Below the pieces are notes generated by a model. The model searched no databases. It was given only the letters and a program-made list of their open reading frames with translations, and had not been told where the DNA came from. Both the position numbers and the translations under genes were made by a program. From contig JADEYG010000007.1 in assembly GCA_016906335.1 (NCBI GenBank), positions 2,294,001 through 2,358,000 of the forward strand: a DNA stretch of 64,000 bases, given 5' to 3'. The stretch is from Novakomyces olei. Taxonomy: Eukaryota. Within the stretch, counting starts at the first letter, position 1. Every line of letters begins with the position of its first letter. Below, in pieces: positions 16,801 to 37,440 of this stretch.

Positions 16801-17203
16801 AAGAAGCAGCCGGTGTATGCAGCCGGCGTCCAGAGGAAGCGTGAGAAGAAGCGATAGAGGAGGCGGGCGAAGAAGACCGGCTCAGCGATCGTCGTACTGT
16901 ATTTATTAGCGGAGGCGTCAGTGGCGCCCGTCGGCCGTTCGGCCCAAGATCGCTGTCGCCTTTGGGACCGTGAGAATTTGTGAGCTGGTCTCTATGCTGC
17001 TGCTGCGGCTTTGCCGCCGGCTCTGCCTGCTTGAGCGATGACGTCGAAGCGGCAGCGTACGCCCAATTGGCACTCGGCTGAAGGCGAGTCGGGATCGGTC
17101 CGTCCTCGCTGCGGATCGGAGCCGACAGAGGCCGGTCTCCGGACCGGCGCTCTCCCTCAGCCGACTTGTCCTTGCGCCGTCTGCTCTTGGCGAAGAGCGG
17201 CAT
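13870..17203 (-). CDS. Large disordered protein with a C-terminal class I SAM-dependent methyltransferase domain
   Basis: RILDHGG, LPFPDDYFDVISSRFL and ELLRVLKPG|GYFE (intron 14486-14270) are class I methyltransferase motifs. The long N-terminus has poly-N, poly-A and KKDQL repeats. Confidence 0.8.
14321..14476. repeat. 18-bp minisatellite (ACGATTAAAAGACGTTGG) x ~8.5 inside an intron
   Basis: Head-to-tail identical units without spacers, within intron 14270-14486. Confidence 0.95.
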
Positions 17204-17965: not shown

Positions 17966-19726
17966 CTAATGCGCCATCTCTGTATCGCACCATGCGGCAT
18001 CAATAGGCCGGTACGCACGCACACTGCCACTCACGAGCCCACGCAACTCCAAGGACCCACGGGTAACGTAGCGTCTAGCATTAGAATTCTGCTCCAGTAC
18101 TTGGCAGCGCATAGTGGCCGCATCGTATGCGGCCACTATGCTCGTATGATCTGGAGCCCCACACGTCTGAGTGATCATTGTCCCATCCGCTCGACGGTGC
18201 TCGAATCGGCAGGCATCAAACTGTAGAATATCTCCAGGCCTCAGCTCCTCATCGGCGGCCCAGACGGGTCCATGCTGGGCAGTAGCTTCGTATACAATAT
18301 GGCCATGCACAGTTCCGTGGGACGTGAAAGCTCCAGGGCACGATTTAAGCGCATAGTCAGCCAGGTCCCAGCACTCTCCACGGCCAACACACTTGCCCAG
18401 CTGTGATTGGCAGTATTGTAAGACTAAAGGCCCAAATTTGTGACTTGCTGCGATTAGTTGAGAGCGGTTGAGCAGTGCGGGAGGCGGGAAATGCTGCTGC
18501 CACGTCTGTGGCGAGTGCAATTGTGATTCCCGGCACACAACGGTGATGAGTGAGCGAGAGCAATCCGGTGTGTAGGTAATGCGTATATGAATCGTGGCCG
18601 TTTTGCCAGTGCTCGAGCTGGATTGCATCTGCATCTGCATTGAACACGTCGCGTCACGTCTGTTTTGTAAGCTTTCCGGCAATTGTAAAGGTTTGCCGGT
18701 GAATATTGCTTCATACCAGGGATGCTGTCGACCTGTCTCGAGATCTATATCGCGCGCTTGCATTTGGCCATTAGCATAAAAGCTAAAGGCCGGAGAAGAG
18801 TGAGGGTTTACAGAAGGCGAGGGAGACGCCAAAGAGGGAGACGCCAAAGAAGGCTTTGTGCTCTTGTTCAACGAGGGCTTGTTTGACGGCAGTGGAGGAG
18901 CAGTGCCGACAGGTTTGCCTGTCAGCCAGGCCGGTTTGGCTTTGGGCGGCATTGGAGGCGGCGGTTTCTTTTTAGCAGCGTTTGCCAGAGAAGCATTGGC
19001 AGAACTTACAACAGAATTGGCAGCACTAGCTGGCTCTACGCCCTGACGCGGCCACGGCTGATCTTGGGCCGGAGCAATGTGGGAGCGAGACAGACGAGAG
19101 TTTAACTCGTCCATAATCCCACTCTGTCCTTTTCCTTTTAAACTTCCATTTCCATTTCCATTTCCATTTCCATTTCCATTTCCATTTCCATTAGCATTTC
19201 CATTAGCATTAGCGTCTCTGGCACTGTCTGCATATAAATGCTCTGTCCGAGTATCGTGCTCTGTCCGACTGGCGGCAGTTTCTTCCGGGCGAGAGCGATT
19301 GCCAGGCGAGTGCCGGGCCGGCAACACTGGTGTCGCGTGAGAATCCCGTAAAGCGAGAGACGGGTTTGGCACAGGCGACCGACGTGGCGGCGGGGCAGGC
19401 GGGCCAGTCTGGCCCGCCGGCCCCGAGTGCCGAGTGGCGGACGTGTAAGCCGGTGGGGGTGTACCGCCTGGCTCTCGCGTCTGCTCCGGTGGGATGTAGC
19501 CAGCCGAGGCGGACTGCCAAGGTGGGATACGGTCTGGCCGGGGCAGCGGGTCGTGGTAGAGCGGCTGCGTGTATGCGTCTGCGCCCGGCAGAGGCTCCGG
19601 CTCCGTCTGCTCGGCAGAGAAGGAGCCTGGCGACTGTGCCGGCAGAGGAGAAGCTCTGGCCGGGACAGGCGGAGTCTGCCTCACCGACCGGGCAGGCAGA
19701 GGCGGAGAGGGCACTCGAGGAGGCAA
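17966..19726 (-). CDS. Proline-rich protein with a BBC1/AIM3-type C-terminal cysteine-proteinase-fold domain
   Basis: PxxP-rich N-terminus (KKKPPPPMPPKAKP). The C-terminal domain reads VGRGECWDLADYAL...LRPGDILQF...GAPDHTSIV...VLEQN...GSVRAYRPI. Confidence 0.72.
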   Translation of the reverse strand: MPPRVPSPPLPARSVRQTPPVPARASPLPAQSPGSFSAEQTEPEPLPGADAYTQPLYHDPLPRPDRIPPWQSASAGYIPPEQTREPGGTPPPAYTSATRHSGPAGQTGPPAPPPRRSPVPNPSLALRDSHATPVLPARHSPGNRSRPEETAASRTEHDTRTEHLYADSARDANANGNANGNGNGNGNGNGNGNGSLKGKGQSGIMDELNSRLSRSHIAPAQDQPWPRQGVEPASAANSVVSSANASLANAAKKKPPPPMPPKAKPAWLTGKPVGTAPPLPSNKPSLNKSTKPSLASPSLASPSPSVNPHSSPAFSFYANGQMQARDIDLETGRQHPWYEAIFTGKPLQLPESLQNRRDATCSMQMQMQSSSSTGKTATIHIRITYTPDCSRSLITVVCRESQLHSPQTWQQHFPPPALLNRSQLIAASHKFGPLVLQYCQSQLGKCVGRGECWDLADYALKSCPGAFTSHGTVHGHIVYEATAQHGPVWAADEELRPGDILQFDACRFEHRRADGTMITQTCGAPDHTSIVAAYDAATMRCQVLEQNSNARRYVTRGSLELRGLVSGSVRAYRPIDAAWCDTEMAH

Positions 19727-20229
19727 TTGCCTCGAGTCTCTTGATTGCCTCGAAAGACTCGAGTCTCTCGAGTCTCCTGGAGAAGCATGTAAATGCGTTT
19801 GGGAACGGGACGAGGATGTGTGGTGAGAAATAGGCGCTCGAGGATCGCGTTTAGGCGGCGGTCCGAACTTTGCAAGGTCGGCCTTGTGCTCCGGCAGACG
19901 CGCCTTGTCGCTGTGGACGGCCTGCGTATCGTACTGCGAGACCTCGTGGCCCGGCCGGACTGAGAGTTAGTGGGAGAATAGTAAAAGGTCTGGCAGTCAT
20001 TGGCACTAGACAAAGTGGGATCGGCTCTTACACCTCGCAGAGTAAGCGTCTGCCTTGTTGTACGCGTTCCGCGTAGACTGTGAGGCCGTTTTGAGACCGC
20101 CCCACACCGTCTGTGCTCCACTGGCGTAGTCTGGCATCGTGGACCGATCTGCTGGTCGCCTACTCTAGCCGGCCATAGTGCATAATAATCGCAGTACAAA
20201 ATAATACGTGGCCGCTCTACGTCTCCTTT

Positions 20230-20410
20230 TATTATTATTATTATTATTATTAAATATTATAATTATTATAATTATTATTAAATATTATAATTATTATAAT
20301 TATTATTAAATATTATAATTATTATAATTATTGTTAAGTATTATAATTATTGTTAAGTATTGTTATAATTATTGTTGAATATTGTTATAATTATTATAAT
20401 AATTATATCA
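20230..20410. repeat. Degenerate ATT/TAAT AT-rich tandem tract
   Basis: Directly visible. Confidence 0.9.
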
Positions 20411-20613: not shown

Positions 20614-20810
20614 AATGTAGCGATGTAGCAATGTAGCAATGTAGCAATGTAGCAATGTAGCAATGTAGCAATGTAGCAATGTAGCAATGTAGCAATGTAG
20701 CAATGTAGCAATGTAGCAATGTAGCAATGTAGCAATGTAGCAATGTAGCAATGTAGCAATGTAGCAATGTAGCAATGTAGCAATGTAGCAATGTAGCAAT
20801 GTAGCAATGT
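20614..20810. repeat. 8-bp tandem repeat (ATGTAGCA)n, ~24 copies
   Basis: Directly visible; source of the spurious LLHCYIAT ORFs. Confidence 0.98.
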
Positions 20811-21255
20811 ATAGCAATTATGTATTATCATATAATATATACGGTTATATATGAACGTACCGGCCGTATGGCCCACGGACGATATGCAAAATGGAAAACG
20901 CATGGCCGAGAATCTCGAGCCGAGCGTGTGGGCAACATGTAAACCTGATTTAAATATTATAAAGATCGATCAAGATACCATTGGGCCGTGCGACTGAGGT
21001 GCTTGGGTAAAAATTAATAGATATTCTCGCAGCCGGCAGATAGTACATGGTTGCCTATGCATGTCTATTGCCTATGCATGTCTGTCAAATCTTGGCCGCT
21101 GAGACTTGAATTGCACGACGCTATGAATTTTACACAATACACAAAGATAAAAGAAATTGCCGCCTTATTCGAGGACCTATGACGCTCAGATCGTTCAATT
21201 GTGGTTTATTGATTGTAGCGTTATTTGACGCAGCACACAATGATTAGTTACTGGA

Positions 21256-21395
21256 GATGATTCATAGTTATTGTAGATGATTCATAGTTACTGTAGATGA
21301 TTCATAGTTACTGTAGATGATTCATAGTTACTGTAGATGATTCATAGTTACTGTAGATGATTCATAGTTACTGTAGATGATTCATAGTTATTGGA
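21256..21395. repeat. 20-bp minisatellite (GATGATTCATAGTTACTGTA) x ~7
   Basis: Directly visible; no spacers. Confidence 0.95.
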
Positions 21396-23247
21396 GATTT
21401 CTTATACAAAAGAGCACTACACATTATCGCCATATTAATTTTGAAACCTAGCTTACTTGTAACTCTGGCGAATCTGACACATTTCCTAAAAACTGTTACT
21501 TGGTGGTGCTCGATCTTTAATGTCAAGAAACAAATAATGTCTCAGTCAGTCACTTTGTCTCGGGCGTTTTCCCCAAACGAGGGACGAGTCAGACACATTA
21601 AACAGCGCTCAAACACGTCCTGCAACGGTCGATCGGTACGAATATTAGATAATCTGAAACCGTCCACAGACACACAGAGTCGGCAATTCTTGCTGCACAT
21701 CTCATGAGGCTTACACCGTGATTGTTTGCAATACGAAATCTGCCCATTGTCGGCCTGGCTGCCCAGAGCGGACCAGTAGTCTGTAAACACTATATTTCCG
21801 CATTTGATTATATGAATTTATTGCCATTTAGTGGTCGGTCTTTGTGCCTGAACAGTATTAATGCGCAGCGAATTTGATTGGATAAAGTCTCTCCGCCGAG
21901 CGCAAGCCCACCACAATCGACCCTTATCGGCGCCATACAACAACCTATAGCTACAATCTCTCCGATAAGCAGCTTCACCCAGCATATCGAGAATTATGCT
22001 TGTTCAAGTTCCATTGCAAGATCCGTATTGACCTTTGCGATTATCGGCTTATGCTATTGACCTTTGCTATTGACCATTGCTATTGGCCATACATTACTAC
22101 CGCGCTTTCTTGGGTACTGTATACTTATCAGCGAATCACAATCTAATCACCTTACTTTATCGTCCACCTTTTGGGAAATGGCTGAAACACGATCTGTCTC
22201 TCGCGTGTTTCACCAGCTTTCCTAATTGGGTCAGCAAAAAGGGCCCCTTATCTGCGAGGTGAAAATTCCACGCAAAACTTTATAGCACTGCCGGAACCGA
22301 TATCTCGTAAAAAGCAAAAATTAAGCTTTTCTCCACCTGTCGAAAACGTCGCGAAAGAGCACGCTAGTACGCTGCCTATTACTTTGATATCACTCTAAAT
22401 TCTGACATGTTTGGTTAATTAGGCGTTTACTATCCCCTTTAGCTTTACAATTTAGTTCGTTAAAGATGGGATTACCTATTAATCATTCTTTGCGCACGAT
22501 CCAACCTGCTCATTAAGGATTTAGCGTGCGTGCCACAGGAACGGGTATTTGAGAATCGCTCGATTAGTACTAGTCTGGTTCACGAAAGCTTGCATATTCG
22601 AGGGCCATAATGCATAAACGGCCCTCCTATTAGTGTTAAAATATACAGCAAAAATATAAGCTGACTCGTATACTTGATTTATGATACGTGATTATGTAGT
22701 TTTGGTTTAAAAAAAGGAGAATTATGTATAATGTAGTGAAATAATATAGGATAAAACACGTGTAAGTATACAGCCATTATCTGCAAGGTGCTAGTCACAC
22801 GCGCACATGAGTGAACGATCTCGGATCTTTATGCACGATACCCATTCATTCGAGCGCGAAATATGCAAAAAATGGCCTACTTTCTGACATGAACGGCAGG
22901 TGTACCAAGCTCAAACGCGTAAAAGGACCAATAAACCGCGTGCTCGTTCTTTTTCGATCAACACCCTTTTTCCCAACGTGGCATTTGCTCTGGTAAAAGA
23001 GTTCAATCTGCATTCTTCCACTTTCCTGTCCGGGGCATCTGCAGCGGTGACACGTGTCTCACCCGCTCAGCTGGGCGGCATTTCAGACCTCCGTTATCCG
23101 TGCATTTTCATTACTTTTGCCGAGAAAGCGTCTCGACCGCGGAAGACACTGCGAGTTTATGCACGTTCTCGGCGTCTACTTGTCGCCGTGTCTGCGATAT
23201 TAAGGCGCTTGCATCTGACAAGTCGCCTTTTCAAAGGACTTGGTGCA

Positions 23248-26200
23248 ATGGCTAACTTTGGCGCTAGTTTTAGTGCTGGTGCCAGCACTGGTGCGAGTAG
23301 CAATAATCCGGGCAATAGCGACGGCATCGCTGTCGTCGGCATAGGGCTCCGCTACCCTGGAGCCTCTACTCTGGCAGAGTTTTGGGCCAATGTTCTGGCC
23401 CGGCGGCAGCAGTTTCGATTGATCCCGGATGAGCGTATGCCGCTCAGCATGTACTATGATCCGAATCCTCGGGCACCCGACATGACGTACGGGAATAGGG
23501 GCGCCTTTATAGACGGATGGGCGTTTGATCTACTAGCTCACAAAATTAACAAGTCTACTTTTGAGACTACAGACATGGCTCATTGGCTCGCGCTCGATGT
23601 AGCGGGCCAGGCTTTACGCGACGCTGGTTACGTAAAGCATGACGCGTCAGATGAAGCGGCGGCAGAACGCGCGTCACGCACGGGTGTCATATTGGGCAAT
23701 ACCCTGACCGGCGATGCGTTTAGAAGTAATCTTATGCGCCTTCGATGGCCGCACGTTAAGCGGGCACTGCTGCTGACAGAGTACGTTCGCTCGCTTCCGA
23801 CTCCAGCTCTGCAGGATTTCTTGAAGGAGGCAGAAGATGCCTTTAAAGCCGGGTTCCCTCCGACAGCTGAGGATTTTTTGTCTGGAAATTTGAGCAATAC
23901 AATCGCCGGCCGGATCTGTAACCACTATGACTTTGGAGCAGGTGGCTACGTCATCGATGGTGCCTGCTCCAGTTCTCTGTTGGCTGTTTGCCATGGCGCT
24001 TCTGCCCTCAGCAGTGGAGAAATGGATATGTGCCTTGTTGGAGGTGTCGATTTGTCTATCGATCCCTTTGAGATTATCGGGTTTGCCAAGACAAAGGCCC
24101 TTTCCCCGGACGAAATGAGGGTCTACGACGAACGTGGCAACGGCTTTATACCCGGAGAGGGCTGCGGCTTTGTCGTACTAAAACGTATGCGTGACGCTTT
24201 AAGGGAAGGCGATCATATCTACGCACAAGTCGCTGGATGGAGTATGTCGAGCGACGGTAAATCGGCAATCACTGCCCCCAAGGCTCCCGGCCAAGCACGT
24301 GCTATTTCGCGAGCTTATGATAGAGCACGGAACCTGCTTCCGAGACAAATTGCCTTTGTCGAGGGCCACGGGACGGGAACCCGAGTCGGTGATCGGGTGG
24401 AAATTGCGGGCCAAGCACTCGTTTTCAATACTGACCCTAATGTTAAATCTAGACAGACCGGAATGACGTCACTAAAGAGTATTCTGGGCCATACTAAAGC
24501 AGCGGCGGGGATTGGTGCGTTTATAAAGACGGTGATGGCAGTCAATCGCAGAGTTTGCCCGCCCACTGCAGGTTGCGAACGGGTAAATCCGTTTTTCTTG
24601 GATCGCGAGGCTCAAGCGCTTTTCCCTCAGCGTTACGGTTACGTGGGCAGTGGTGCCTTTCATGCGGGAGTATCAGCTATGGGATTTGGTGGTATTAATT
24701 CTCATGTACTAGTTTCCTCTGTCGGCGAAGAACCATCGCCCCGATTGTCGTTGGACAATGGGATTGGTGAGCGGGCCGCAATGGTCTCTCATCAGCCAGC
24801 TGAACTGTTTCTTTTTGCTGCTGAATCAATCGCTGAATTGACGGAGCAGTTGCAGCACTGGGCCGCAATTGCTCAGCGAATAGCCGTAGCCGAAATGGTG
24901 GACTTGTCCCGGCATTTAATAACAAATTTGTCAACGAGTGGGACCGGGTACAGGGCGGCCGTAGTCGCCACTACTCCAGCGCAATTAAGCGCAGACCTGC
25001 TGGACTTTGCGCAGTCTATTCAAAACGAATTTTACGTGCCCGGCGAACTAGTCCGGAAGGGGCCCAACAAGCTGTTAGCCTGTATGACTATGATGACGTC
25101 AGAAAGCAGCAACAGTTATCCATCCGTGGGATTCCTTTACCCCGGACAGGGCAGCCAAAGCGTGGGAATGGCAAGAATGTTGATTGAAAGGTTCGCGTGG
25201 GCGCGTGGGCTGGCGGAGAGTTTAGTCCCACGCAAGGTGTGGGATACAGCATTCCCAGATTTAAATCATATTATGGACAAGGAAGGGCTGGCTGCGGCTA
25301 ACCGGGAACTTAGCCGGACAGATGTAGCTCAGCCGGCTATCTGTCTGGCCTCCATCTTGTGGACTATTTGGCTAGAAAAGCTGGGAGTCCGCCCTTCCGC
25401 AGTATCGGGCCACTCTTTGGGCGAGCTGAGTGCCTTCTTTGCTGCTGGCCGACTCGATGCTGAATCAGTGTTGCGATTGGCAGAGCTGCGAGGCCGATTA
25501 ATGGCTGATTTGACTACAGAATCAGCCATGATTGCCCTTGGATGTGATGCAACAGCGGCACAAGCGCTTTTGCAGCCTTTGCAAAGCAGTGGGTTTGCTG
25601 CCCTGGCAAACATAAACTCGTTTAAGCAGGTCGTTGTCTCGTGCGGAGTAGAAATGGTGACTGTAATCTTGGAGAGAGCCGCTGCCTCTGGTATTAAAGC
25701 CAAAAGGCTTCCCGTATCCAACGGCTTTCACTCCGAATTGGTCCGTGAAGCAGCCAATCAGCTTCGAGCAGCTGAGCCGCACTTGAAATCTAGACATGGC
25801 GTAAACGACAAGGACAAGACTATCCTCTATTCCTCAGTGACTGCGAGTCCAGCGGAGGCCAGCATGAATCATTTTGCAGAGCACGTGATGCACCAAGTGG
25901 ATTTCGTGGCAATGGCACGAGCGCTGGCCAACAAGTGCGATACTATCATCGAAGTAGGACCCGGCCGGGTTCTTACAGGTCTCTGCGATGATATCCTGAG
26001 TGCGTCTCCGTCAGTTTCTGTGATGCCGATAGAGGCAGCTGCTAATGATGCCTCGCATATGCTGGTGATGGGCATGTTGTTTGTACGTGGAGTGCCAATT
26101 AACTTGCCTGCTTTATTTGAGGGCAGAATTGTTAGGCCTTTTGTTCCGGCTCACGAAAAGATTTTCATTATTAATCCGGCAGAAAGAGCGGCAATTGCCC

Positions 26201-29200
26201 GGGCGCGGTCGGGCAAAACTGACATGAAAGTTGAAACGTCTGTTGAAACGTCTGTTGAAACGTCTGTCCCTTGGGAGATGGGACCGGCAAGCTCGGGCAG
26301 AAGGCGATCTTCTGGCAGGCCGAATAACACTACTGCTCAACGGGTAAATGAAAGGCCGATCGTTGAGAGGGTAATCGATCTGGCAGAGGAATTTACAGGG
26401 TTCCCTCGGCAGAACATTCGGCCAGATTCCAGTTTGGCAGACGATTTGAATATGGACTCGATCAAGCTGAGTGATTTTGTAGTCGCTGCGGCAGTTACAG
26501 CTGGCGTTTCTGCCGAAATTGACATTGGAGACTTTTCCTCTGGCACATTGGGCCAATTAGCAAGTGCCCTTGAAGCCCTGGCTCCGCCCTTGAAGGCTCC
26601 TTCTTCCACGCTACCTGCTCAAGAGCCAGTGCACTCGGCAAAGGAAAAGACCAGCTTCTCTGAAGGCAGTGGACGAATGCTTTCGACACAGGCGATTATC
26701 CGCTGGCTCGTTAGCCGATGTGCTGAAATAACTGGGTTCCCGGAGAACGCAATCGGCCCAGAAAGCCGATTGTTGGATGATTTGAGCTTTGAGTCTATAA
26801 AGGCAGCTGATTTTGTGGAGGAAGCAGCTCGGTTTGTCGGCGCTGATCTCTCAGTCGTCAGTGGGACTAACGACATTGCTAATATGCAGCTCGACGAACT
26901 GGCAAAACTGCTCCACGATAACCAGACACGCCGGGACTCGATGGTTCAGTATTTAATAGATAAAAAATCGTCTGCTGCTCGTCGCCGGTCTTCGGCAATG
27001 TCTGCCGGATCGCAAGTAGCTGCGCTCAATGTCTCTCATGGATTTGCTAATAACAGTGGCAGTATGCCGGCTGCTGCCCGGCAATTGCATACAATTGCAG
27101 ATAGCCCGGCTAGTTCTGCTCCTGAAATTGCCGAGTTTATTGTACAAAAGGCTGCTGATACAACGGGGTTCCCCGTGTCGGCAATCAAACCGGATTCCCG
27201 TCTGCTCGACGATTTGAACATGGACTCTATCAAATCTGTTGACTTTATTGCTGAGGCTTCAACGGACCTTGCTGTGGCCACAACTGCCTTTGATGCTGGA
27301 GAGTTTGCTAATGCTTCTTTACGGGAACTGGCGGAAGAGTTTTCAAAGCACGGAGCCAGAATTGCTGTTGCTACAGCTAATGTAGAGAAACCCGGGGCTG
27401 CCGCACCAGTTTCTCATCCGGCAGTTTCGTTCAAGGACTATAAGCTTTCAGAGGCTTATCACCACAACAACAACAACCACACCACTACTACTCCTACTCA
27501 AGCTCATTATTCTGCTCATCCACGGTCTGAGGCTTCAGTGACGGAAAAGCCGCTTGATCCCAAATCCCGTAGTGTGGAGCCTTCTTTATTGCCTCAGAAA
27601 GCGGACGCTTCTTCCAGGGCCAAAGACAGGGCAAAAGCTGCGGATATCCACTCACGGATTGCAAAGTACCCTGACTGGGTTCGAGACTTTGCTATTCGCT
27701 ATGAGCCAAGGGCACTTTTGCCACAGGAAAAGCAGCAGTCTTCAACGCTTTCAGCTTCTTTGGCAAACAAGGATTTGGGCTCTAGCAATTTCGATGCCAG
27801 CAAGCAAAAAATTTTGTTTATATCTGACGGAGAGGATAGTGCGACACTCGGCTCACTAGCGGCAAAGTTTATGATGCTGGGGTCCACCGTGACTCTCAGT
27901 TCATGGAACGAAGCCCGGTCAAAGCTGCCGGCAGACACGAACCATGTAGTGGCAATTTTGCCCAAGATGGAGACGATTGACGATTTTGCATCGGCCACAG
28001 AATCGCTCTGCAGTCTATTACAGCGACTGGCGGCAATTGTAGGCTCTTCCAGGGCGATTAAACAGCTCACGGCTATCGTTCCCGGGCAAGTTTTGTCTCG
28101 AGAAAGTGGATCGCTGCTGCCGACACTGACAACACCGGCTCTCAGCTTTATCAAGAGTGTACAGCTCGAAACTCCACAGTTGTCTACAAATTTAATAGTT
28201 GCCGACAATGCCAAAGTCGTTACGTTTGACGCTCTGTTGAACGAACTGCGATGGCAAAGTTCTCCGTTTTCCGAGATCTACATTGACGCTGCCGGCCAAA
28301 GGTACGAACCAGTAGCGGAAATGCTGGACGACGAAACCTTTGTGTCCCGCCGTATTGACTGGGACGAGGATGACGTCATTGTCGTTACTGGTGGAGCCAA
28401 AGGTATTACGGCGGAATGCGTGTTGCAATTGGCTAAAACTGTACGCACTAAATTTGCTCTTGTCGGCAGCAGTCCCGCTTCACCCGCTTCGGACCGCACA
28501 TTAGAGCAGTTACGCAGCTCTGGCATTACTGCCGCTTATTTTGCTTGTGATTTAGCCGACAGTGGGGCAGTGGGCGATGTGGTGGAGGCAATTGCTCAGC
28601 AGTTGGGTGAGCCAACCGCCGTCATTCACGGGGCGGGTAAGAATTCCAATAGGTTTGCAAAAAACAGCAGTGTTGCCGATGCCATTGACGAAATGGGACC
28701 CAAATTGTTTGGCATTTACAACCTGCTCAGTGCAATTGCCACTCCGCTCAAACTAATCGTGGCCCTAACCTCTATCATTGGCGTCAGTGGCATGGCGGGT
28801 AATGCGTGGTACGCGTTTGCTAATGCCAGTGTCGAGTTTCAGCTCGAATCTTACCGCAGGGACAATGCGGAAACACAGACAATGTGCATTGCCTACAGCG
28901 TGTGGGATGACGTGGGCATGGGAGTGCGGATGGGGTCGATAGACAAACTCGGTAAAATGGGCATCGGCGCTATCCCCGCCGTAGATGGGATAAACCAGTT
29001 TGTAAATCTTGTTCTGGGCACACCCCCACGTAAGTCGACGGATTTGGTAGTCGTAACGGCACGTGTTGCGGGGCTGCCCACGTGGCCAACCCCTGCATTC
29101 CATCCCAATTCTGTCTACCTGGACGATACTGTTGTGGGGTACCCCGGGATTGAGCTGGTATCCCGCACACGGATCACTTTTGCCGACGATCCTTATGTGC

Positions 29201-30735
29201 TTGAGCATGTCTACAAGGGCACTGCGCTGTTTGCTACCGTCTTTGGACTGGAGGCAATGGCTCAGGCGGCCATTACCCTGTTGCAACGGCCAGCTTCAGC
29301 GACTTCCGATGCTGATGGAGACAAGAGTGGAGAAAAATTTAGAGTATCTCGTATAGAAAATATCCGGCTGGATCGGCCGTTGATCGTTACGTCCAAGGGT
29401 CTGGAGATGGAGACGTATGCGCGTCTGCAAAGGCAGACTTCAGCTACAGCAGTGGTCGATTGCCAGTTACGGTGTGAGAGTTCTGCCTTTCGCACTCCTC
29501 ATTTCTCTGCTACTTTTGTGCTGGAAAAAGTGCAGGAGGACGATGGAGTGGACAATGTACACGCTGAAGCCAGTGAGCACCTTGAGCCTGGCCAATTGCT
29601 TGATATTGACCCCAAATGCGACCTGTACGGCAGCGGCATTTTGTTCCAGCAGGGCCGATTCCAAAAGCTGCAGGGCATTTTTGCTCTGGACGACTCGAGC
29701 ATTACTTTTAAAACGTACGCAGATGCCTATACGGATGGTAGGAAGAACGTGCTCGGCGATCCCTTTTGCCGGGACGTTTTGCTCCAGAGTACGGCAATTC
29801 TGCAGTCAAAAGTGGACGCTTTACCCGTAAGTATTGCCAGTATCGAGCTGGGCCGACTGGCTCTGGCTGGTGGGCCTCGTATCGCAGAAACGAGGCTTGA
29901 ATCCGTGCAAGATCGCAATATTACGGTCACTATTGTCAGCCGAGATGCCGAGTCGGGAGCCGTTGCGGAAGTCATGAGCGGCTATACTTGCCGAATCCTG
30001 AGTGAGCGGCCGGATTACCCGATGGCTTCGGAGCTGGTTGATCCTATCACGAGCGACGGCCGGCGTGTAAATGCCCTGATAGCCAATAGCAAGCTGACGG
30101 GTATTGCCGCCAAACTGGACTGGAATCGCGGATTTTCCCGTTTAAATAGGGCCGAACGGCATTTGCAAGAATCTGCGCTTGTTGCTCGTGCTCTGCCTGG
30201 AGCCTCTTTGGCGTGGCAGGAAAGGCGGCCAGTTCTGCAAGGCGGAAAGCCCCAGGCCGACTCTATTTCTATTACCCACAGCGGCGATTACTTGATCGCT
30301 GCCTTGGGAAATCGGCCTCTTGGCTGTGACTTGGAGCGAGTAGGCAAACGGACTCGTGAGCATTGGCTGTCTATTCTGCCGTCGTGTGTCCACCAAGTTT
30401 TGCAGGCAAATACGGAGCACTCTCCCCTCAAACGCCGAGACTCTGGGCAGCAAGAATTGAGCCTTATTGCTACACAGCTGTGGTGTGCTCTGGAGGCCTA
30501 TTACAAGCTGACAAATGTGGCCGCTGGTGCCGATGCCCAAGTCGCCATTGTGTCTGAGCAGCTGGAGAAGGATAAAGACGGCCAAAGCAATACACCCTCA
30601 TCAACCAGAGGGAAAGTCAATCCTCAGGGGCCATTGCGCCTGCGTATAAACGAGGCACAGGTCTGGTCATGGCCGATTCATATGGCACGAGAGGGTAAAC
30701 ACGTGTTTGCTCTCGCCGTGTTTGCCCACTCGTAG
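23248..30735 (+). CDS. Enediyne-type (PksE-like) iterative type I polyketide synthase, KS-AT-ACP-ACP-ACP-KR-DH-PPTase, ~2495 aa, intronless
   Basis: KS triad GACSSS (Cys 23965), EGHGTGT, GHTKAAAG. AT GQGSQ, GHSLG (Ser 25414), NGFHS. Three ACPs with LxDDLx(M/F)(D/E)SIK. KR TGGAKGIT and YAFAN. DH HVYKG and RDVLLQ. PPTase SITHS, GCDLE, WCALEAYYK. First in-frame ATG at 23248. Confidence 0.93.
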   Translation: MANFGASFSAGASTGASSNNPGNSDGIAVVGIGLRYPGASTLAEFWANVLARRQQFRLIPDERMPLSMYYDPNPRAPDMTYGNRGAFIDGWAFDLLAHKINKSTFETTDMAHWLALDVAGQALRDAGYVKHDASDEAAAERASRTGVILGNTLTGDAFRSNLMRLRWPHVKRALLLTEYVRSLPTPALQDFLKEAEDAFKAGFPPTAEDFLSGNLSNTIAGRICNHYDFGAGGYVIDGACSSSLLAVCHGASALSSGEMDMCLVGGVDLSIDPFEIIGFAKTKALSPDEMRVYDERGNGFIPGEGCGFVVLKRMRDALREGDHIYAQVAGWSMSSDGKSAITAPKAPGQARAISRAYDRARNLLPRQIAFVEGHGTGTRVGDRVEIAGQALVFNTDPNVKSRQTGMTSLKSILGHTKAAAGIGAFIKTVMAVNRRVCPPTAGCERVNPFFLDREAQALFPQRYGYVGSGAFHAGVSAMGFGGINSHVLVSSVGEEPSPRLSLDNGIGERAAMVSHQPAELFLFAAESIAELTEQLQHWAAIAQRIAVAEMVDLSRHLITNLSTSGTGYRAAVVATTPAQLSADLLDFAQSIQNEFYVPGELVRKGPNKLLACMTMMTSESSNSYPSVGFLYPGQGSQSVGMARMLIERFAWARGLAESLVPRKVWDTAFPDLNHIMDKEGLAAANRELSRTDVAQPAICLASILWTIWLEKLGVRPSAVSGHSLGELSAFFAAGRLDAESVLRLAELRGRLMADLTTESAMIALGCDATAAQALLQPLQSSGFAALANINSFKQVVVSCGVEMVTVILERAAASGIKAKRLPVSNGFHSELVREAANQLRAAEPHLKSRHGVNDKDKTILYSSVTASPAEASMNHFAEHVMHQVDFVAMARALANKCDTIIEVGPGRVLTGLCDDILSASPSVSVMPIEAAANDASHMLVMGMLFVRGVPINLPALFEGRIVRPFVPAHEKIFIINPAERAAIARARSGKTDMKVETSVETSVETSVPWEMGPASSGRRRSSGRPNNTTAQRVNERPIVERVIDLAEEFTGFPRQNIRPDSSLADDLNMDSIKLSDFVVAAAVTAGVSAEIDIGDFSSGTLGQLASALEALAPPLKAPSSTLPAQEPVHSAKEKTSFSEGSGRMLSTQAIIRWLVSRCAEITGFPENAIGPESRLLDDLSFESIKAADFVEEAARFVGADLSVVSGTNDIANMQLDELAKLLHDNQTRRDSMVQYLIDKKSSAARRRSSAMSAGSQVAALNVSHGFANNSGSMPAAARQLHTIADSPASSAPEIAEFIVQKAADTTGFPVSAIKPDSRLLDDLNMDSIKSVDFIAEASTDLAVATTAFDAGEFANASLRELAEEFSKHGARIAVATANVEKPGAAAPVSHPAVSFKDYKLSEAYHHNNNNHTTTTPTQAHYSAHPRSEASVTEKPLDPKSRSVEPSLLPQKADASSRAKDRAKAADIHSRIAKYPDWVRDFAIRYEPRALLPQEKQQSSTLSASLANKDLGSSNFDASKQKILFISDGEDSATLGSLAAKFMMLGSTVTLSSWNEARSKLPADTNHVVAILPKMETIDDFASATESLCSLLQRLAAIVGSSRAIKQLTAIVPGQVLSRESGSLLPTLTTPALSFIKSVQLETPQLSTNLIVADNAKVVTFDALLNELRWQSSPFSEIYIDAAGQRYEPVAEMLDDETFVSRRIDWDEDDVIVVTGGAKGITAECVLQLAKTVRTKFALVGSSPASPASDRTLEQLRSSGITAAYFACDLADSGAVGDVVEAIAQQLGEPTAVIHGAGKNSNRFAKNSSVADAIDEMGPKLFGIYNLLSAIATPLKLIVALTSIIGVSGMAGNAWYAFANASVEFQLESYRRDNAETQTMCIAYSVWDDVGMGVRMGSIDKLGKMGIGAIPAVDGINQFVNLVLGTPPRKSTDLVVVTARVAGLPTWPTPAFHPNSVYLDDTVVGYPGIELVSRTRITFADDPYVLEHVYKGTALFATVFGLEAMAQAAITLLQRPASATSDADGDKSGEKFRVSRIENIRLDRPLIVTSKGLEMETYARLQRQTSATAVVDCQLRCESSAFRTPHFSATFVLEKVQEDDGVDNVHAEASEHLEPGQLLDIDPKCDLYGSGILFQQGRFQKLQGIFALDDSSITFKTYADAYTDGRKNVLGDPFCRDVLLQSTAILQSKVDALPVSIASIELGRLALAGGPRIAETRLESVQDRNITVTIVSRDAESGAVAEVMSGYTCRILSERPDYPMASELVDPITSDGRRVNALIANSKLTGIAAKLDWNRGFSRLNRAERHLQESALVARALPGASLAWQERRPVLQGGKPQADSISITHSGDYLIAALGNRPLGCDLERVGKRTREHWLSILPSCVHQVLQANTEHSPLKRRDSGQQELSLIATQLWCALEAYYKLTNVAAGADAQVAIVSEQLEKDKDGQSNTPSSTRGKVNPQGPLRLRINEAQVWSWPIHMAREGKHVFALAVFAHS

Positions 30736-31724
30736 CTGGATCTGGTTGGTTACATTTTGGTTTGATTTGATTTGCTGTTTATTATCGCTTTACTGCTACT
30801 GTTTTTCTAGAGATCAGGATTCAAGGGTCTGGATTATGGGCAATGAATGGCTCTCATGTGTAACTACGCTGTGAGTGGTGGTCGAGCACTTTATTGTTTA
30901 TATACTTGTTTAGTCAATTTTGTATACTGGTTATTAATTAATTAATCGTTGTTTGCCTATAGTGCCGACGTGGGAACGTGTAAAAATAATATAGACTGTC
31001 GCCTGCTGATCTGTACTTCATCATGTAAATGCCGACAATGAGGTCGAGAATAATGCGTATGTATTTGCAAGGCAAAACATCAATACTGATCCTGTGTTTT
31101 TGTAGGCAAATACGCCGACCATTTAGAATGCATATCGTGTGAATATTCCTCAGAGCTTTACTCGGCACTCCTCAGTCTTGAACATTGGCGTATTTATTAG
31201 TGTGTTTATATATACTGTGGTTTTTATAGGCTTTTGTAGGCTTTAATAGCAATTTAGTAATAAATATTGTTTCGCTATTATACAAATCATAGACCCGGCA
31301 ATACTTACTCCCTGTGCCGTAGTCCCTAATGCGGGTAGCTCTTTATCGAGGCTGTTTAAAAAGCCAATAGGCTCGAAATCCGGCAATTAAGGTAGCGACA
31401 AAGACTGTCCGACTCGTACAGAAAGCTAGAGCAACAATAAACAGACAGAAAAAACCGACAAAATTAAATCCCAGAGAGCAGGCGACAAGACGCAAATCAC
31501 AGTTTCGGGCAGGTCGCAGAGTCTAGACGGTTGTTCATTTAATAGTATACTTGTGTGTGTATACCGGTATCGTATGCACACAAACTTACTTGTCATTTTC
31601 GGAAATTACCTTCAGATATGCGACCCGCATCCTTATCTTTGACAGGTAAAAGAAATATAAATATCGCCAGCCGAAAATTATACAAAATAAACTGCCTCCT
31701 GCGTGGCAGGCCGATACCGCCGTC

Positions 31725-33375
31725 ATGTACGACACAATTGTCAAGGCAAGTCTCAGCGATAGCGTACACTATACTAAACGTGCAGAACGGGATTATATGC
31801 ACTGCTTCAGAAACGTACCCGGCAGATATCGGTATCATTGACGGCCGAATCGCAGCAATTGCACCCAGCTTGACCGGTGCAAGCGCCATTATAGATGCAC
31901 AAGGAGGATATGTGACGGTATGCCTCCAAACTCCGCTTTGCTTTGACTTTTTCACATTTTTGTTTCTGAAAACGTGATACGACTCTTGTTTGTTTTCTAC
32001 ATCATCTACAATGTGTTCTAATTCCATCCAGCCCGGTGGCGTTGATGGCCATGTCCATTTATCGGAACCGTTGAACCTTTTTGGCCAAATGGAGGACGAT
32101 TTCGAAAGCGGCACGCGGAGCGCTGCCGCCGGCGGGACTACAACTATTGTCTCGTTTGTGTCTCAGGACAAGAACGACCGGGAGCCCGGATCGCTTCTTC
32201 GTGCTTTAAAAGGCTTCAAGGATACGGCCACCGATGTCTGCTACTGCGATTACGCAATGCACATGATCCTGGCCGACCCACGCAGCGAGGAGATGCTGGA
32301 TCGGGAACTGCCCCAGCTTACGTCAGCCGGTGTGACAAGTATTAAAATGTACATGACGTATCGGGACCTGCACGTGCGTGATGACATGTTATTGACAGCA
32401 ATGATGATGGCGCGTAAACACGGGGTCACAACAATGCTGCATGCGGAAAACGGAGACGCGATTGAGTGGATGGTGAACGCGTTGGAACGGCAGAATAAAA
32501 TATCGCCCGTGTACCACGCGGTTTCGCGTCCGCCCCTACTGGAAACAGAGGCCACGAATCGCGCTATCGTGCTGGCAGAGCTGATGGACTCACCCGTGCT
32601 GTTTGTACACGTGTCCGCGCCCGGAGCGGCCGCGTGTATTCGCGCGGCCCAGACGCGTGGCCTACAGGTCTTTGCCGAGACGTGTCCCCAGTATGTCGCA
32701 CTAACTGCCGATCATTTACGCGCTCTGCACTGCCACGATCCGTTTGAGGGGGCCAAGTTTGTTTGCTCTCCACCGCCACGTGAGTCGGCAGGAGACCACG
32801 AGGCCATTTGGCAGGGGCTGCGTAATGGCACGTTTACCATTCTCTCGTCCGACCACTGCTCTGCCAAGTACGACGGCGAGGAGGGCAAACGCGTCGCGTT
32901 CCGACACGGCCATAAAGGTGCATTCCGGTACATTCCGAACGGGTGTCCCGGTTTGGAAACGCGGATGCCTCTCATATTCTCCATGGGCGTGAACCAGAAC
33001 CGGTTACCCCTCCAAAAATTTGTGGAGGTGATGTGTACGAATCCGGCAAAACTGTACGGAATGTACCCACGCAAGGGGTCGATCGTTCCGGGCGCGGACG
33101 CGGATCTGGTAGTGTGGTACCGGGATTACAACGGACATCCCACGACCGTGAGAAACGCTAATTTACATCATAATGTTGACTACACACCGTACGAGGGAAT
33201 GGCCCTGTCAAACTGGCCGCGATACACGATCGTACGTGGGCGTGTTGTGTTTTCCGAGGGCAAGATTGTGCCTGAAGCACGTGGGCACGGCATGTACATT
33301 GCGCGGGAGAAGAGCTTGCTTGCAGTGCCGCGTAACGAATGGCTCACCGAGTGGCGGCCGGATTATATAAAGTGA
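31725..33375 (+). CDS. PYD2: Dihydropyrimidinase / D-hydantoinase
   Basis: Exons 31725-31745, 31786-31917, 32032-33375 give MYDTIVKNGIICTASE...PGGVDGHVH, GGTTT, SIKMYMTY, HAENG, AETCPQY, SDHC and NPAKLYG amidohydrolase motifs. Confidence 0.92.
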
Positions 33376-33648
33376 TTTTTATAAATTTAAATAAAAGGCC
33401 TTGTAGAATGTTGTACAATACAAAGGCATCGTTCCAGGTTTCAACGAAAATGAATAAAACACAGTGGAGGCCTTCATTTGTCCTTTGATTGCAATGTAAC
33501 AACAAGGTCCTCTATCGGCAAAGCTATTTGGAGAGGGATAATAAAGATTGAACAATCCGTTGATTAATGAGCTCAATAAACATCTCTAGACTAATAAAAT
33601 CACTATGGTCAGCGGTGGAAGCAATTCGTGTCCTTGAAGATTACGTAT

Positions 33649-34731
33649 TTAATACCCCACACGCCGGTCAACCTTGTTCACCAAAGGCCTGCCGGTAGCA
33701 AGATTGCGTAGATTACGCTCAAAGATATCAAGCAGCCTATCATTGTAAGAATCCGAATTGCCACTCACGTGTGGTGATATGAAAATATTCTTTGCATGCC
33801 AGAGCCGATGATTCTGAGGTAAAGGCTCCGGGTCAGTGACGTCAACGGCGGCACCGCGAATCTCGCCAGATTCCAGTGCGTCGTACAGCGCGTCAGAATC
33901 CACAGTGGGCCCGCGCCCAACGTTACTTAGGAACGGGTTGCCATGCTGACTCATGATGCTGAATTGTTTACGGCCAAACAGTCCGTGTGTCAAGTCCGTA
34001 AGCGGCAAAGCCACCACGATAATGTCAAACTTTTCGTGCAGGAACGCGTCGATTGCGTCACGGGACTCACCGTGGAACCAACGGTCCGGCAATTCGCCCG
34101 TCACATCGCCTAATCCCTCAACGGAATACGCGTCGTCCCGACGCGATTCAGGGGTAGCGCGCTCGCGTAAAGTGTACACGTCCACGCTCATACCAAAAGC
34201 CTTTGCCAATCGCGCACACTGCCGTCCAATGCCGCCATACCCAAGAATGCCCATTCGCAATCCCACGCAATCCTCCACGCCTTCATCATTGTCGGCCGCT
34301 AGCCAATGGCCCGTGCGCATTGCGTCACGGTAAAGGAACGTGTGATGATTGAAATTCATAAAGGTCATAAACACCCATTCCGCGATTTGCGGGCCGTGAA
34401 TGCCGTTCGCTGTACAAAGCGCGACTTTAGTATCATTAAACAAATCATAAGCTTTCACGTGATTGCACCCGGCCGAGTTTAACTGCACGTAGCGTAAACG
34501 AGGAGCTTGATCTCGCGATTCGGGGAACAATGACTGTGTCAGCACGATTGTAACATCCCGCCATACGGACTCTGCCGCGTCTGGCTCGCGTCCAATCAAT
34601 TTGGGATAATGCTCGACTTCGAGACCGGGGAATTCGGCTTTTAATCGGTCCACGTACTCATCGGACGGGAACCACGGCAAAGCGATCACCGCTTTTTCGC
34701 CTTGAAGCGTGGGGTTCGCTGATTTTGTCAT
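33649..34731 (-). CDS. D-isomer-specific 2-hydroxyacid dehydrogenase (NAD-binding)
   Basis: GILGYGGIG Rossmann motif, LPLT, NVGRG, DVTDPEPLP, SPHVSG. Intronless. Confidence 0.93.
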   Translation of the reverse strand: MTKSANPTLQGEKAVIALPWFPSDEYVDRLKAEFPGLEVEHYPKLIGREPDAAESVWRDVTIVLTQSLFPESRDQAPRLRYVQLNSAGCNHVKAYDLFNDTKVALCTANGIHGPQIAEWVFMTFMNFNHHTFLYRDAMRTGHWLAADNDEGVEDCVGLRMGILGYGGIGRQCARLAKAFGMSVDVYTLRERATPESRRDDAYSVEGLGDVTGELPDRWFHGESRDAIDAFLHEKFDIIVVALPLTDLTHGLFGRKQFSIMSQHGNPFLSNVGRGPTVDSDALYDALESGEIRGAAVDVTDPEPLPQNHRLWHAKNIFISPHVSGNSDSYNDRLLDIFERNLRNLATGRPLVNKVDRRVGY

Positions 34732-35358
34732 TTTCGCGCGCTTAAACTTGGTGATAGAATTATGCGCGATATAAAGGTTGCGAATTTACGCTGCCAGGCC
34801 AGGTCAGGTCTGGTGGGATTCGGACACAATTCTGAGCTTTTCGCTACAGGTCTCGACGCAATTGCTTAGCGTTCGTTAAAAAGACTATCAGATCATAGCG
34901 TACAAAGCTCGCACGGGATCGAGTTCTATATGGGATACTGCTCAGTTCTTATCTTTTGCTATATGAACGATTAATACTAGCCAATCATTCATTCGTTGGC
35001 TGCGAATCTTTGTACAGCGAATTGATATCAAATTAAGTAATGGATAAAGATCAATAGAATATCATGATTTGCAGGCGACTAATATTTAGAGCAAATTATA
35101 TTTTTATAAACATTATGGCCGCAGAATAACTGTAAAAAAATGAAATAAACAAGAAAAATAAATTGGCGTAAAGATTATGTACAAGACAAGTCTATAATGA
35201 CGCACCCTTTTTCGATGGCATTTGAACATCTTTTATCTCTATCTGATCTTCTATTCGTCCAAAGTCTCCAGCTATGTATGAGCTCGCTAGACGATTCGAA
35301 TCCAAGTCTCAAAATTTCAGTCGAGACTAGCCTAAGACATTTTTTTACTTGCTCTAAA

Positions 35359-36461
35359 TCACAACTCATAAATACGCACCAAAGCATCCGAGTATATAAA
35401 GCGTTGAGGATATGTGCGAGTGCTGCCGTCCCCAACAACGGCAATTTGACGTGGGTTCAATTTTTCACTGGCACGAGTCGCGGCTAAAAACTGTTCCAAC
35501 GTCTCCGCATTTCTCTCTGTTGCAGAAAGCAAGATTCGGCAGTTTGGTTGTAATTCACGTGCAGCCGCAAACGATCTTACCAGTTCGTCACATACAAGAG
35601 GATCGTAGGTCTGGGAGTAAGCAAAACGTACATTGAAGTTTTCAATACTTGCTCGCACAATAAAGTTTAAAGACAAATGCTTGATAAGAAAATGACAAAA
35701 ATTAATTAAAACTAACGAAATGATTCGAATTAAAATAAATAAAGCATAAAATAAAAGACGCAACATACAATATCAGCACCAATAACAAAATCAACAGCTT
35801 CAAGCGGAATATTTTCGCCCCACATGTACTCCATAACGTGCATATTTCCGCATTCATTGACGGCCGCAGTATTAATCGCTCGCTCACACGCCTCGGGGCT
35901 ACCATCTGTAGCCAGAATAGAGGCTTTAGGCAGAATTTTACTGAGAAGTGCGCTGCAAAATGCAGTTCCACAGCCAAGCTCAAGCACGTTTTTCGTGTCT
36001 GACTTCAATAGATCTTTTTGATACAAAAGAAATTCTCCAAGTGCCAAAGCCGCTGGCCATGTCTGCAGACCCGTTGTCCCGGCGGCGGAAATCAGGCCAC
36101 GCGATTCGTGTACAGTGAGGGTTAAATCTTCGTCTGTATATACGACAGGCACCAACTGCCATGCAGAATCTTTATGGTTAGGATTAGCAGCAATTGCTAG
36201 AGATACGATGACATCATATAGCGATTCGTGAACCTCTACTGCTTCACGCTCGAGGCAAGACAAAAAGCGTTTACACACGAGAGCTGTGTAGCGCAAAAGA
36301 TTGGGCGAATTTTGTGCTTGTTGCAATATTTTAATCGCTAATTCTTGCTGCTCGTACGTCCATTGCTCACAGGCGCTCGGAGGCTGAAATGTAAAATCAA
36401 AAGGAGCAATTCGTTGATAGAATTGCTTGCGAAACCATTCAGCGTTATCCATACGGCTCAT
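35359..36461 (-). CDS. EFM3: Protein-lysine N-methyltransferase EFM3/FAM86-like
   Basis: GTTGLQTWPAALAL, VLELGCGT, and GADI|TYDP across intron 35768-35611, then SATERN. Confidence 0.85.
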
Positions 36462-36667
36462 ATAATTTTGGCATCCATCTTTTCAGTATTGATATTTGAC
36501 CTTTATTTCTCCCCTATAAAGCGAGCTTTAAATGGCGTCTGAGTTTGATTATAGTTTGACTCTTATTTTCTTCCGATCACGAATGAACTGATGATCATTG
36601 ATAGCTCAATGGTCCGCCACAGGCCACAATGGTCGTAGCAGCAACAATGTAATTTTGGTTGCAGGCT

Positions 36668-36973
<306 letters not shown>

Positions 36974-37264: not shown

Positions 37265-37265
<1 letters not shown>

Positions 37266-37356
<91 letters not shown>

Positions 37357-37357
37357 T
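37266..37357. repeat. (ATT)n microsatellite, ~90 bp
   Basis: Directly visible. Confidence 0.97.
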
Positions 37358-37440
37358 ACGTCATAAATGCCCTCAAATTGCCAACGCCACGTATGGGCAC
37401 AATTAACAAATCAAAAATCAAATACACAAAGGTACCCAAA

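Follow-up and report, generated by a model that had tools for sequence, protein, structure and literature searches.

How did a fungus come to carry a polyketide synthase (PKS) whose named relatives are all bacterial, and what might such an enzyme make? The question arises from a 64,000-nucleotide stretch of the Novakomyces olei genome (NCBI GenBank assembly GCA_016906335.1, contig JADEYG010000007.1, positions 2,294,001 to 2,358,000 of the forward strand), which we call the window and to which all coordinates below refer. The PKS gene lies at 23248-30735 on the + strand, stop codon included, as a single unbroken open reading frame (ORF) of 2495 codons from its ATG. A preliminary description, made from the sequence alone, had proposed that this is a bacterial PKS of the enediyne type (PKSE) embedded in a fungal chromosome. 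We consider it probable that the gene encodes a bacterial-type iterative PKS of the PKSE superfamily that was horizontally transferred to an ascomycete lineage, where it stands as a single intronless gene among fungal housekeeping genes. PKSE-type synthases are familiar as enzymes of bacteria, and a search of the full-text literature, with few subscription journals included, turned up no paper describing such a gene in fungi or other eukaryotes. The PKS is a known kind of enzyme in an unprecedented host.

Reading frame, domain order and catalytic residues

The PKS ORF is the longest ATG-initiated ORF of the window, the runner-up having 1543 amino acids, and its frame spans 22888-30735 when measured from stop to stop. 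Given the base composition of the ORF, the odds of 2495 stop-free codons are ~1e-49. A search for yeast-type intron signals in the ORF found none. We also observed that a Nup84/Nup107-family gene of the window (45888-47170, - strand) is split over the overlapping frames 45891-46727 and 46721-47170; the split fits a short intron, indicating that there are introns in neighbouring genes and none in the PKS gene.

We assigned domains using Pfam, motif inspection and a family alignment of 24 sequences, comprising the PKS and 23 bacterial homologues (alignment A1). For the C-terminal domains, AlphaFold2 models were built on 52-sequence alignments and compared with the PDB using Foldseek. The features of the gene are as follows.

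23248..30735, + strand: whole ORF, iterative type I PKS with the order ketosynthase (KS)-acyltransferase (AT)-acyl carrier protein (ACP)-ACP-ACP-ketoreductase (KR)-dehydratase (DH)-phosphopantetheinyl transferase (PPTase); collinear end to end with bacterial homologues
23323..24576, + strand: KS, residues 26-443; Pfam PF00109 and PF02801; Cys240, His374 and His415 invariant in A1
25132..25992, + strand: AT, residues 629-915; Pfam PF00698; Ser723 in GHSLG, Arg748, Phe827-His828
26335..26562, + strand: carrier protein 1, approximately residues 1030-1105; Ser1071 in DLNMDSI
26707..26934, + strand: carrier protein 2, approximately residues 1154-1229; Ser1183 in DLSFESI; 42-51% identity to the other two ACPs
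27103..27330, + strand: carrier protein 3, approximately residues 1286-1361; Ser1327 in DLNMDSI, an invariant column
28378..28908, + strand: KR, residues 1711-1887; Pfam PF08659; Lys1819, Ser1842, Tyr1855, Asn1859
29125..30009, + strand: DH with a double hot-dog fold, approximately residues 1960-2254; Pfam PS-DH and AlphaFold2 model; His1987, Asp2176
30010..30732, + strand: C-terminal Sfp-type PPTase, residues 2255-2495; weak Pfam ACPS match and AlphaFold2 model; Asp2361, Glu2416, Lys2420

Pfam recognised KS, AT, PP-binding, KR and PS-DH domains in the PKS, and the closest PDB sequence to the AT is the AT of DynE8 (4amn; E = 1.9e-29). Inspection of motifs located three carrier-protein motifs, with serines 1071, 1183 and 1327; the three ACPs are mutually 40-51% identical, indicating that they are not recent duplicates. 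The Pfam ACPS match at residues 2357-2431 was weak (E = 2.7e-4, under the gathering score). For residues 2255-2495, an AlphaFold2 model with a predicted local distance difference test score (pLDDT) of 88.3 had Sfp-type PPTases as all 34 of its PDB matches at E <= 0.001; these include PptT, Sfp, AASDHPPT, PptAb and PcpS, with TM-scores of ~0.45-0.55. The leading Foldseek PDB matches of a second model, covering residues 1940-2495 (pLDDT 88.7), were PKS dehydratase domains. Based on the combined Pfam, motif and structural evidence, we conclude that the order KS-AT-ACPx3-KR-DH-PPTase is real.

The catalytic residues of every PKS domain fall in invariant or near-invariant columns of A1. The PKS keeps 250 of the 272 columns that are invariant in the 23 bacterial homologues, all catalytic columns among them, and in the KR all 35 such columns are kept. 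The preliminary description had reported an intronless ORF of ~2495 amino acids and a KS-AT-ACP(s)-KR-DH-PPTase order; the uninterrupted frame upholds the first, and Pfam, the alignment and the two structure models bear out the second. Its statement that the KS Cys/His/His, AT Ser and KR Tyr are intact agrees with Cys240/His374/His415, Ser723 and Tyr1855 in A1, and the PKSE motifs that it had listed are all present in the translation and agree with the bacterial family consensus in the same alignment.

Fungal iterative type I PKSs have the order KS-AT-DH-(methyltransferase)-(enoyl reductase)-KR-ACP if reducing, and starter-unit acyltransferase-KS-AT-product template-ACP if non-reducing. The PKS, with its KS-AT-ACP3-KR-DH-PPTase layout, does not follow the order of the highly reducing, non-reducing or partially reducing fungal enzymes.

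Placement within the PKSE superfamily

We searched a 5.8-billion-protein database that includes many fungal proteomes, in which the PKS matched 1176 proteins. The best 120 of these 1176 matches are 32-47% identical to the PKS; all those that bear a name are bacterial, ~20 carry the JGI label 'enediyne polyketide synthase', and none is named as fungal. An exhaustive HMMER search of the KS-AT region against 1.84 billion representatives gave no single-stretch match above 49% identity, and the highest KS-AT identity anywhere, ~50%, was in bacterial genomes. A metagenome scan with patterns taken from the N. olei PKS yielded 94 pattern matches and no relative, and the ESM Atlas returned bacterial PKS clusters only. 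Solved fungal PKSs scored under bacterial ones (168 bits for LovB and 159 bits for norsolorinic acid synthase, versus 334 bits). The bacterial affinity first proposed for the PKS therefore stands: in the protein search and the exhaustive HMMER search the named relatives are all bacterial, at no more than ~50% KS-AT identity.

For phylogenetic placement, the PKS was compared with 80 named bacterial PKS loci; five of the genomes concerned also contributed their PfaA/HglE-type and modular PKS genes. The KS-AT region of the PKS is 40-47% identical to a long form of 2200-2990 amino acids (group A), 36-40% identical to a shorter form of ~1900-2000 amino acids (group B), 30-31% identical to PfaA/HglE-type proteins, and 25-28% identical to modular PKSs. 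KS-AT trees were built with FastTree (110 and then 131 rows) and with IQ-TREE (LG+C20+F+G4, 57 rows x 954 columns); they hold bacterial PKS classes and the N. olei protein, with other fungal KS sequences outside them. FastTree and IQ-TREE agree in separating modular PKSs, PfaA/HglE and the PKSE superfamily, with support of 100. In the IQ-TREE KS-AT tree, the PKSE superfamily, group A and group B each have a Shimodaira-Hasegawa-like approximate likelihood ratio test (SH-aLRT) value of 100, and the PKS lies inside group A. A tree of the KR-DH-PPTase half gave the identical split between groups A and B with SH-aLRT 100, indicating that the PKS is not a chimera of families. On sequence phylogeny and architecture, we assign the PKS to PKSE-like group A. 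Within the KS-AT tree it is sister, with support of 99, to a small clade of two Myxococcota genomes and two further proteins. FastTree had joined the C-terminal half to a long branch (locus L036); this placement carried a warning, dissolved in the mixture-model tree, and was not used.

The tandem carrier domains and the KS-AT-ACPn-KR-DH order are those of PfaA, the KS is related with the same N-terminal region, and the PfaA model (TIGR02813) was second among the NCBIfam matches of the PKS. These features speak for the alternative that the PKS, instead of being related to PKSEs, is a subunit of PfaA/HglE type from a synthase of polyunsaturated fatty acids or glycolipids. By contrast, the PKS scored only 439.8 bits with this model against a cut-off of 1010 bits, within the range of PKSE-like genes (398-461 bits) and far from that of true cyanobacterial PfaA/HglE-type genes (1376-1422 bits). 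The KS-AT identity of 30-31%, the separate clade with support of 100 and the C-terminal PPTase also argue against a PfaA/HglE-type subunit. A second KS, AT, KR or DH was sought in the window and none was found, indicating that there are no PfaB/C/D-like partners nearby. We therefore regard a PfaA/HglE identity as highly improbable. The KS did not nest with PfaA/HglE, the two clades being split at 100, while ordinary fungal PKSs, the other grouping against which the preliminary description had set its proposal, were compared by score and not by tree. Its term PksE-like is supported to the extent that the PKS groups within the PKSE superfamily, away from both PfaA/HglE and modular PKSs.

We next consider the relationship to enediyne biosynthesis proper. 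In PMC9992847, the canonical PKSE is described as a single polypeptide with KS-AT-ACP-KR-DH-PPTase order, the 'minimal PKSE cassette' as combining the PKSE with a thioesterase and three further conserved genes, and the polyene product of characterised PKSEs as needing a thioesterase. Group B, which includes actinomycete enzymes, is the canonical enediyne type: homologues of E4 (UnbV) are present in 19 of 25 group B loci and homologues of E3 (DUF1702) in 17 of 25, and at a Micromonospora locus the PKS is immediately preceded by DUF1702 and UnbV genes. This linkage agrees with the minimal cassette as presented in PMC9992847. The PKS resembles the canonical enzymes DynE8, CalE8 and SgcE in its domain types and order and in its superfamily clade; the DynE8 AT is its best solved match, and its PPTase end is homologous to, and can be aligned with, the PPTase end of cassette-linked PKSEs. 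By contrast with the canonical enzymes, which have one atypical ACP, the PKS has three that can be recognised as such; it falls in group A, their sister clade; it is ~550 residues longer; and no thioesterase, DUF1702 or UnbV gene is present in the window.

The proteins of the enediyne cassette are recognised by Pfam and by no NCBIfam model. Searches of the 64-kb window with tblastn and hidden Markov models (HMMs) found none of the cassette components (hot-dog thioesterase, E3/DUF1702, E4/UnbV and E5). As a probe for E10, a small ORF downstream of the Micromonospora PKSE was tried, had no Pfam or PDB match, and was replaced by an HMM of the fused domain. With no thioesterase, DUF1702, UnbV or second PKS domain in the window, we consider enediyne formation by the PKS unlikely. 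A more specific proposal is that the PKS starts an enediyne core within a genuine pathway whose cassette genes lie elsewhere in the genome. It draws on the PKSE domain order (PMC9992847), on the closeness of the AT to DynE8 and on the KS-AT sister clade, where both members with visible context have an E4-like UnbV gene immediately before the PKS. It is opposed by the position of the PKS outside the cassette-linked clade, with the split at SH-aLRT 100 in both halves, by the housekeeping character of the neighbouring genes, and by the absence from the 64-kb window of DUF1702 (E3), UnbV (E4) and CalE7-like thioesterase genes; we give it very little credence. Hence, of the enediyne PksE type originally proposed, membership in the PKSE superfamily and an AT nearest to DynE8 are retained, and a place in the cassette-linked clade with accessory genes in the window is not.

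Group A enzymes have the layout KS-AT-ACP1-4-KR-DH-PPTase, often fused to two hot-dog domains, and in many of the group A relatives this didomain at the C-terminus, a homologue of CalE7, SgcE10 and DynE7, makes release part of the enzyme itself. A fused thioesterase was present in 101 of 255 collected matches, a set that includes unrelated giant modular PKSs. Hosts include Nostocales, Thermoactinomycetaceae, Myxococcota, Planctomycetota, Nitrospirota, Methylococcus and others, and the commonest neighbour family occurs at just 8 of 41 group A loci; a scatter over many phyla without a widely conserved neighbour fits a mobile, self-contained gene. We found no characterised group A member. The PKS shares with group A its clade, at SH-aLRT 100 in both halves, end-to-end collinearity, tandem carrier domains of the LDDLNxDSIK type and the built-in PPTase. 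It differs in its fungal host, its host-type codon usage, its KS-AT identity of no more than ~50%, its fungus-specific low-complexity inserts, and its lack of the fused thioesterase that is frequent, though not universal, in group A. Like some bacterial members, the N. olei PKS stops just after the PPTase, and there is no thioesterase remnant downstream.

The group A loci vary in their gene content. At two Myxococcota loci, L031 (1027-2853) and L127 (1508-3778), a UnbV-family gene (FG-GAP and UnbV_ASPIC) lies directly upstream of the group A gene; the L127 PKS has a fused hot-dog thioesterase, and no DUF1702 gene was seen at either locus. With its two genes, this arrangement resembles a pared-down module, intermediate between the complete enediyne cassette and a stand-alone PKS. 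In five cyanobacterial loci (L003, L005, L009, L034 and L040), between one and three E3-like genes (DUF1702), with 33-38% identity to actinomycete E3, lie close to the PKS, and there is no UnbV gene. In seven Nostocales loci (L005, L006, L013, L017, L034, L041 and L056), the domains of the PKSE-like gene are divided between a KS-AT ORF of ~1030 amino acids and an ORF encoding the remainder, which reflects either a two-subunit form or a frameshift.

Fungal setting of the gene

The genes that flank the PKS are as follows.

17966..19966, - strand: upstream neighbour, fungal AIM3/BBC1-family gene (Pfam PF25459, E = 4e-44)
32011..33375, + strand: downstream neighbour, fungal-type dihydropyrimidinase (Pfam amidohydrolase)

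The window ORFs with Pfam matches, other than the PKS, are all eukaryotic, and several are fungus-specific. They include MFAP1, an actin-family gene, a P-type ATPase, an ammonium transporter (Amt), Pex24p, Nup84, Arp2/3 p34 and a gene with a fungal-specific transcription factor domain. The nearest named relatives of Amt are ascomycetes, at 61-70% identity, and those of the dihydropyrimidinase are ascomycete yeasts, at 53-59% identity. Since the downstream gene is a fungal-type dihydropyrimidinase, the PKS lies outside any co-transferred cluster; we had entertained co-transfer of the adjoining amidohydrolase with the PKS, and rejected it for the same reason. The GC content at third codon positions (GC3) of the PKS is 0.516, and clearly fungal flanking genes have values of 0.49-0.59. 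Relative synonymous codon usage of the PKS correlates with that of the clearly fungal flanking genes at r = 0.75, the top value among the genes tested. AT-rich micro- and minisatellites fill the intergenic flanks on each side of the PKS, at 20229-20407, 20614-20811, 21245-21398, 36667-36973 and 37265-37358; they comprise a TTA/TAT microsatellite of up to 103 copies, an 8-mer repeated 25 times and a 20-mer repeated 7.7 times. Short-read contigs break at the satellites around this region.

Because every named relative of the PKS is bacterial, we weighed the alternative that bacterial contaminant DNA was fused to fungal DNA during assembly and that the PKS is not in the fungal genome. The only long contig across the region (15 kb) comes from sequencing run X1, which is possibly the source run, as such an artefact would allow. 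A different study supplied run X2, in which each of the 30 bins of 20900-36600 is covered without a single difference, at a depth of 2.7-6.3 that is even over the PKS and its flanks. An artefact is also difficult to reconcile with fungal genes on either side of the PKS within one 64-kb sequence, with GC3 and codon usage like those of the fungal flanks, and with eukaryote-style satellites separating the PKS from its neighbours. Moreover, no bacterial protein is more than ~50% identical to the PKS, indicating that no sequenced contaminant matches it. A chimeric assembly is very unlikely. The setting of the PKS in a fungal chromosome, as the preliminary description had it, is thus borne out by fungal genes on both sides and by the fungal best matches of Amt and the dihydropyrimidinase, and the even, difference-free X2 coverage of PKS and flanks runs counter to the join with bacterial DNA that it had raised as a concern.

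Probable transfer and retention, and predicted product

Bacterial named relatives, a position in the PKSE clade and fungal flanks together support horizontal acquisition, as had been suggested at the outset; judged by these comparisons of sequence, the PKS was most likely acquired from bacteria. Transfer of another PKS class from bacteria to ascomycetes, that of the 6-methylsalicylic-acid-synthase type, is documented in PMC2636887, so that ascomycetes already offer an example of a type I iterative PKS of bacterial origin. The present PKS differs from that type in its class and domain order; the 6-methylsalicylic-acid-synthase type is widespread in fungi, whereas a fungal relative of the present PKS was not found in the protein databases searched.

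Several observations weigh against transfer of an intact PKSE-type gene. With regard to sequence constraint, 22 of the 272 invariant columns are altered in the PKS, compared with 0-13 in bacterial leave-one-out controls; the altered positions include Pro1996Ala, in a DH motif, Trp95Leu and Trp953Leu. The C-terminal half lies on a long branch (1.7 versus a median of 0.68), suggesting that some relaxation of constraint is possible. With regard to phylogeny, the two halves do not share a sister group, and under the mixture model the KR-DH-PPTase tree does not resolve one for the PKS. As the C-terminal half does not confirm the KS-AT sister group, a Myxococcota-like donor is only a lead. With regard to linkage, X2 contigs are ~1 kb, and none of them spans the whole PKS together with a fungal flank; the independent-read coverage begins at 20900, with repeats beyond, such that the AIM3/BBC1 side falls outside it. 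Lastly, an HMM of the fused CalE7-like thioesterase, run against all frames of the window, gave no match (best E = 0.87).

The altered columns and the long C-terminal branch, together with the lack of a release enzyme or partner gene nearby, are what favour the alternative that the PKS is a decaying or silent relic, transferred and then lost in expression or function. Against a relic, the 7.5-kb frame is free of stops, with the probability by chance given above; all catalytic residues are kept, as are the 35 invariant KR columns; the KS-AT branch of the PKS (1.07) is similar to the root-to-tip values of its sisters (0.83-1.12); and codon usage has turned host-like without loss of the frame. 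We consider a relic unlikely, although less so than the other alternatives weighed above, and prefer transfer followed by maintenance of an intact gene.

By analogy with characterised PKSEs (PMC9992847), the C-terminal PPTase would prime the three carrier domains of its own polypeptide. The KS, AT, KR and DH would then act iteratively to add malonyl units, reduce the keto groups and dehydrate the products, leaving out enoyl reduction, and the expected outcome would be a conjugated polyene acyl chain held as a carrier-protein thioester (PMC9992847). Such a PKS would be self-activating, so one gene could support chain synthesis, which may have eased transfer. Since the window has neither a thioesterase nor an enediyne accessory gene, a linear polyene or polyenoic lipid would be a more likely product than an enediyne; the enediyne PKSEs proper make a C15 heptaene or C16 polyene intermediate. 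As first suggested, the product could be a polyene with a role as a pigment or protectant. With no thioesterase fused or in the window, release must use an unlinked or unrelated enzyme.

We tentatively propose, with rather less confidence than we place in the transfer itself, that a eukaryote here keeps a complete, captured, self-priming megasynthase of PKSE type, a single gene sufficing for a conjugated polyene lipid or pigment whose release falls to a host enzyme recruited after the transfer. If this is correct, it would be the first enediyne-family PKS working in a fungus. An intact PKS of this kind amid fungal housekeeping genes would bring a further PKS class into the biosynthetic repertoire of fungi, and would stand as a clear example of transfer between kingdoms of a single-gene pathway core of 7.5 kb, which the built-in PPTase may have made workable. 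Such a PKS would, in addition, constitute a natural test, namely a group A member without the usual fused thioesterase in a eukaryotic cytosol, whose product could be studied directly.

Two minor features of the window complete the description. Beyond the AIM3/BBC1-family gene, a 975-amino-acid ORF at 14276-17203 (- strand) has as its sole match a short C-terminal methyltransferase, residues 862-906. Within the PKS gene, a perfect 12-bp repeat of 3.2 copies at 26230-26267 encodes three consecutive VETS units in the linker between the AT and the first ACP, and may be polymorphic in length.

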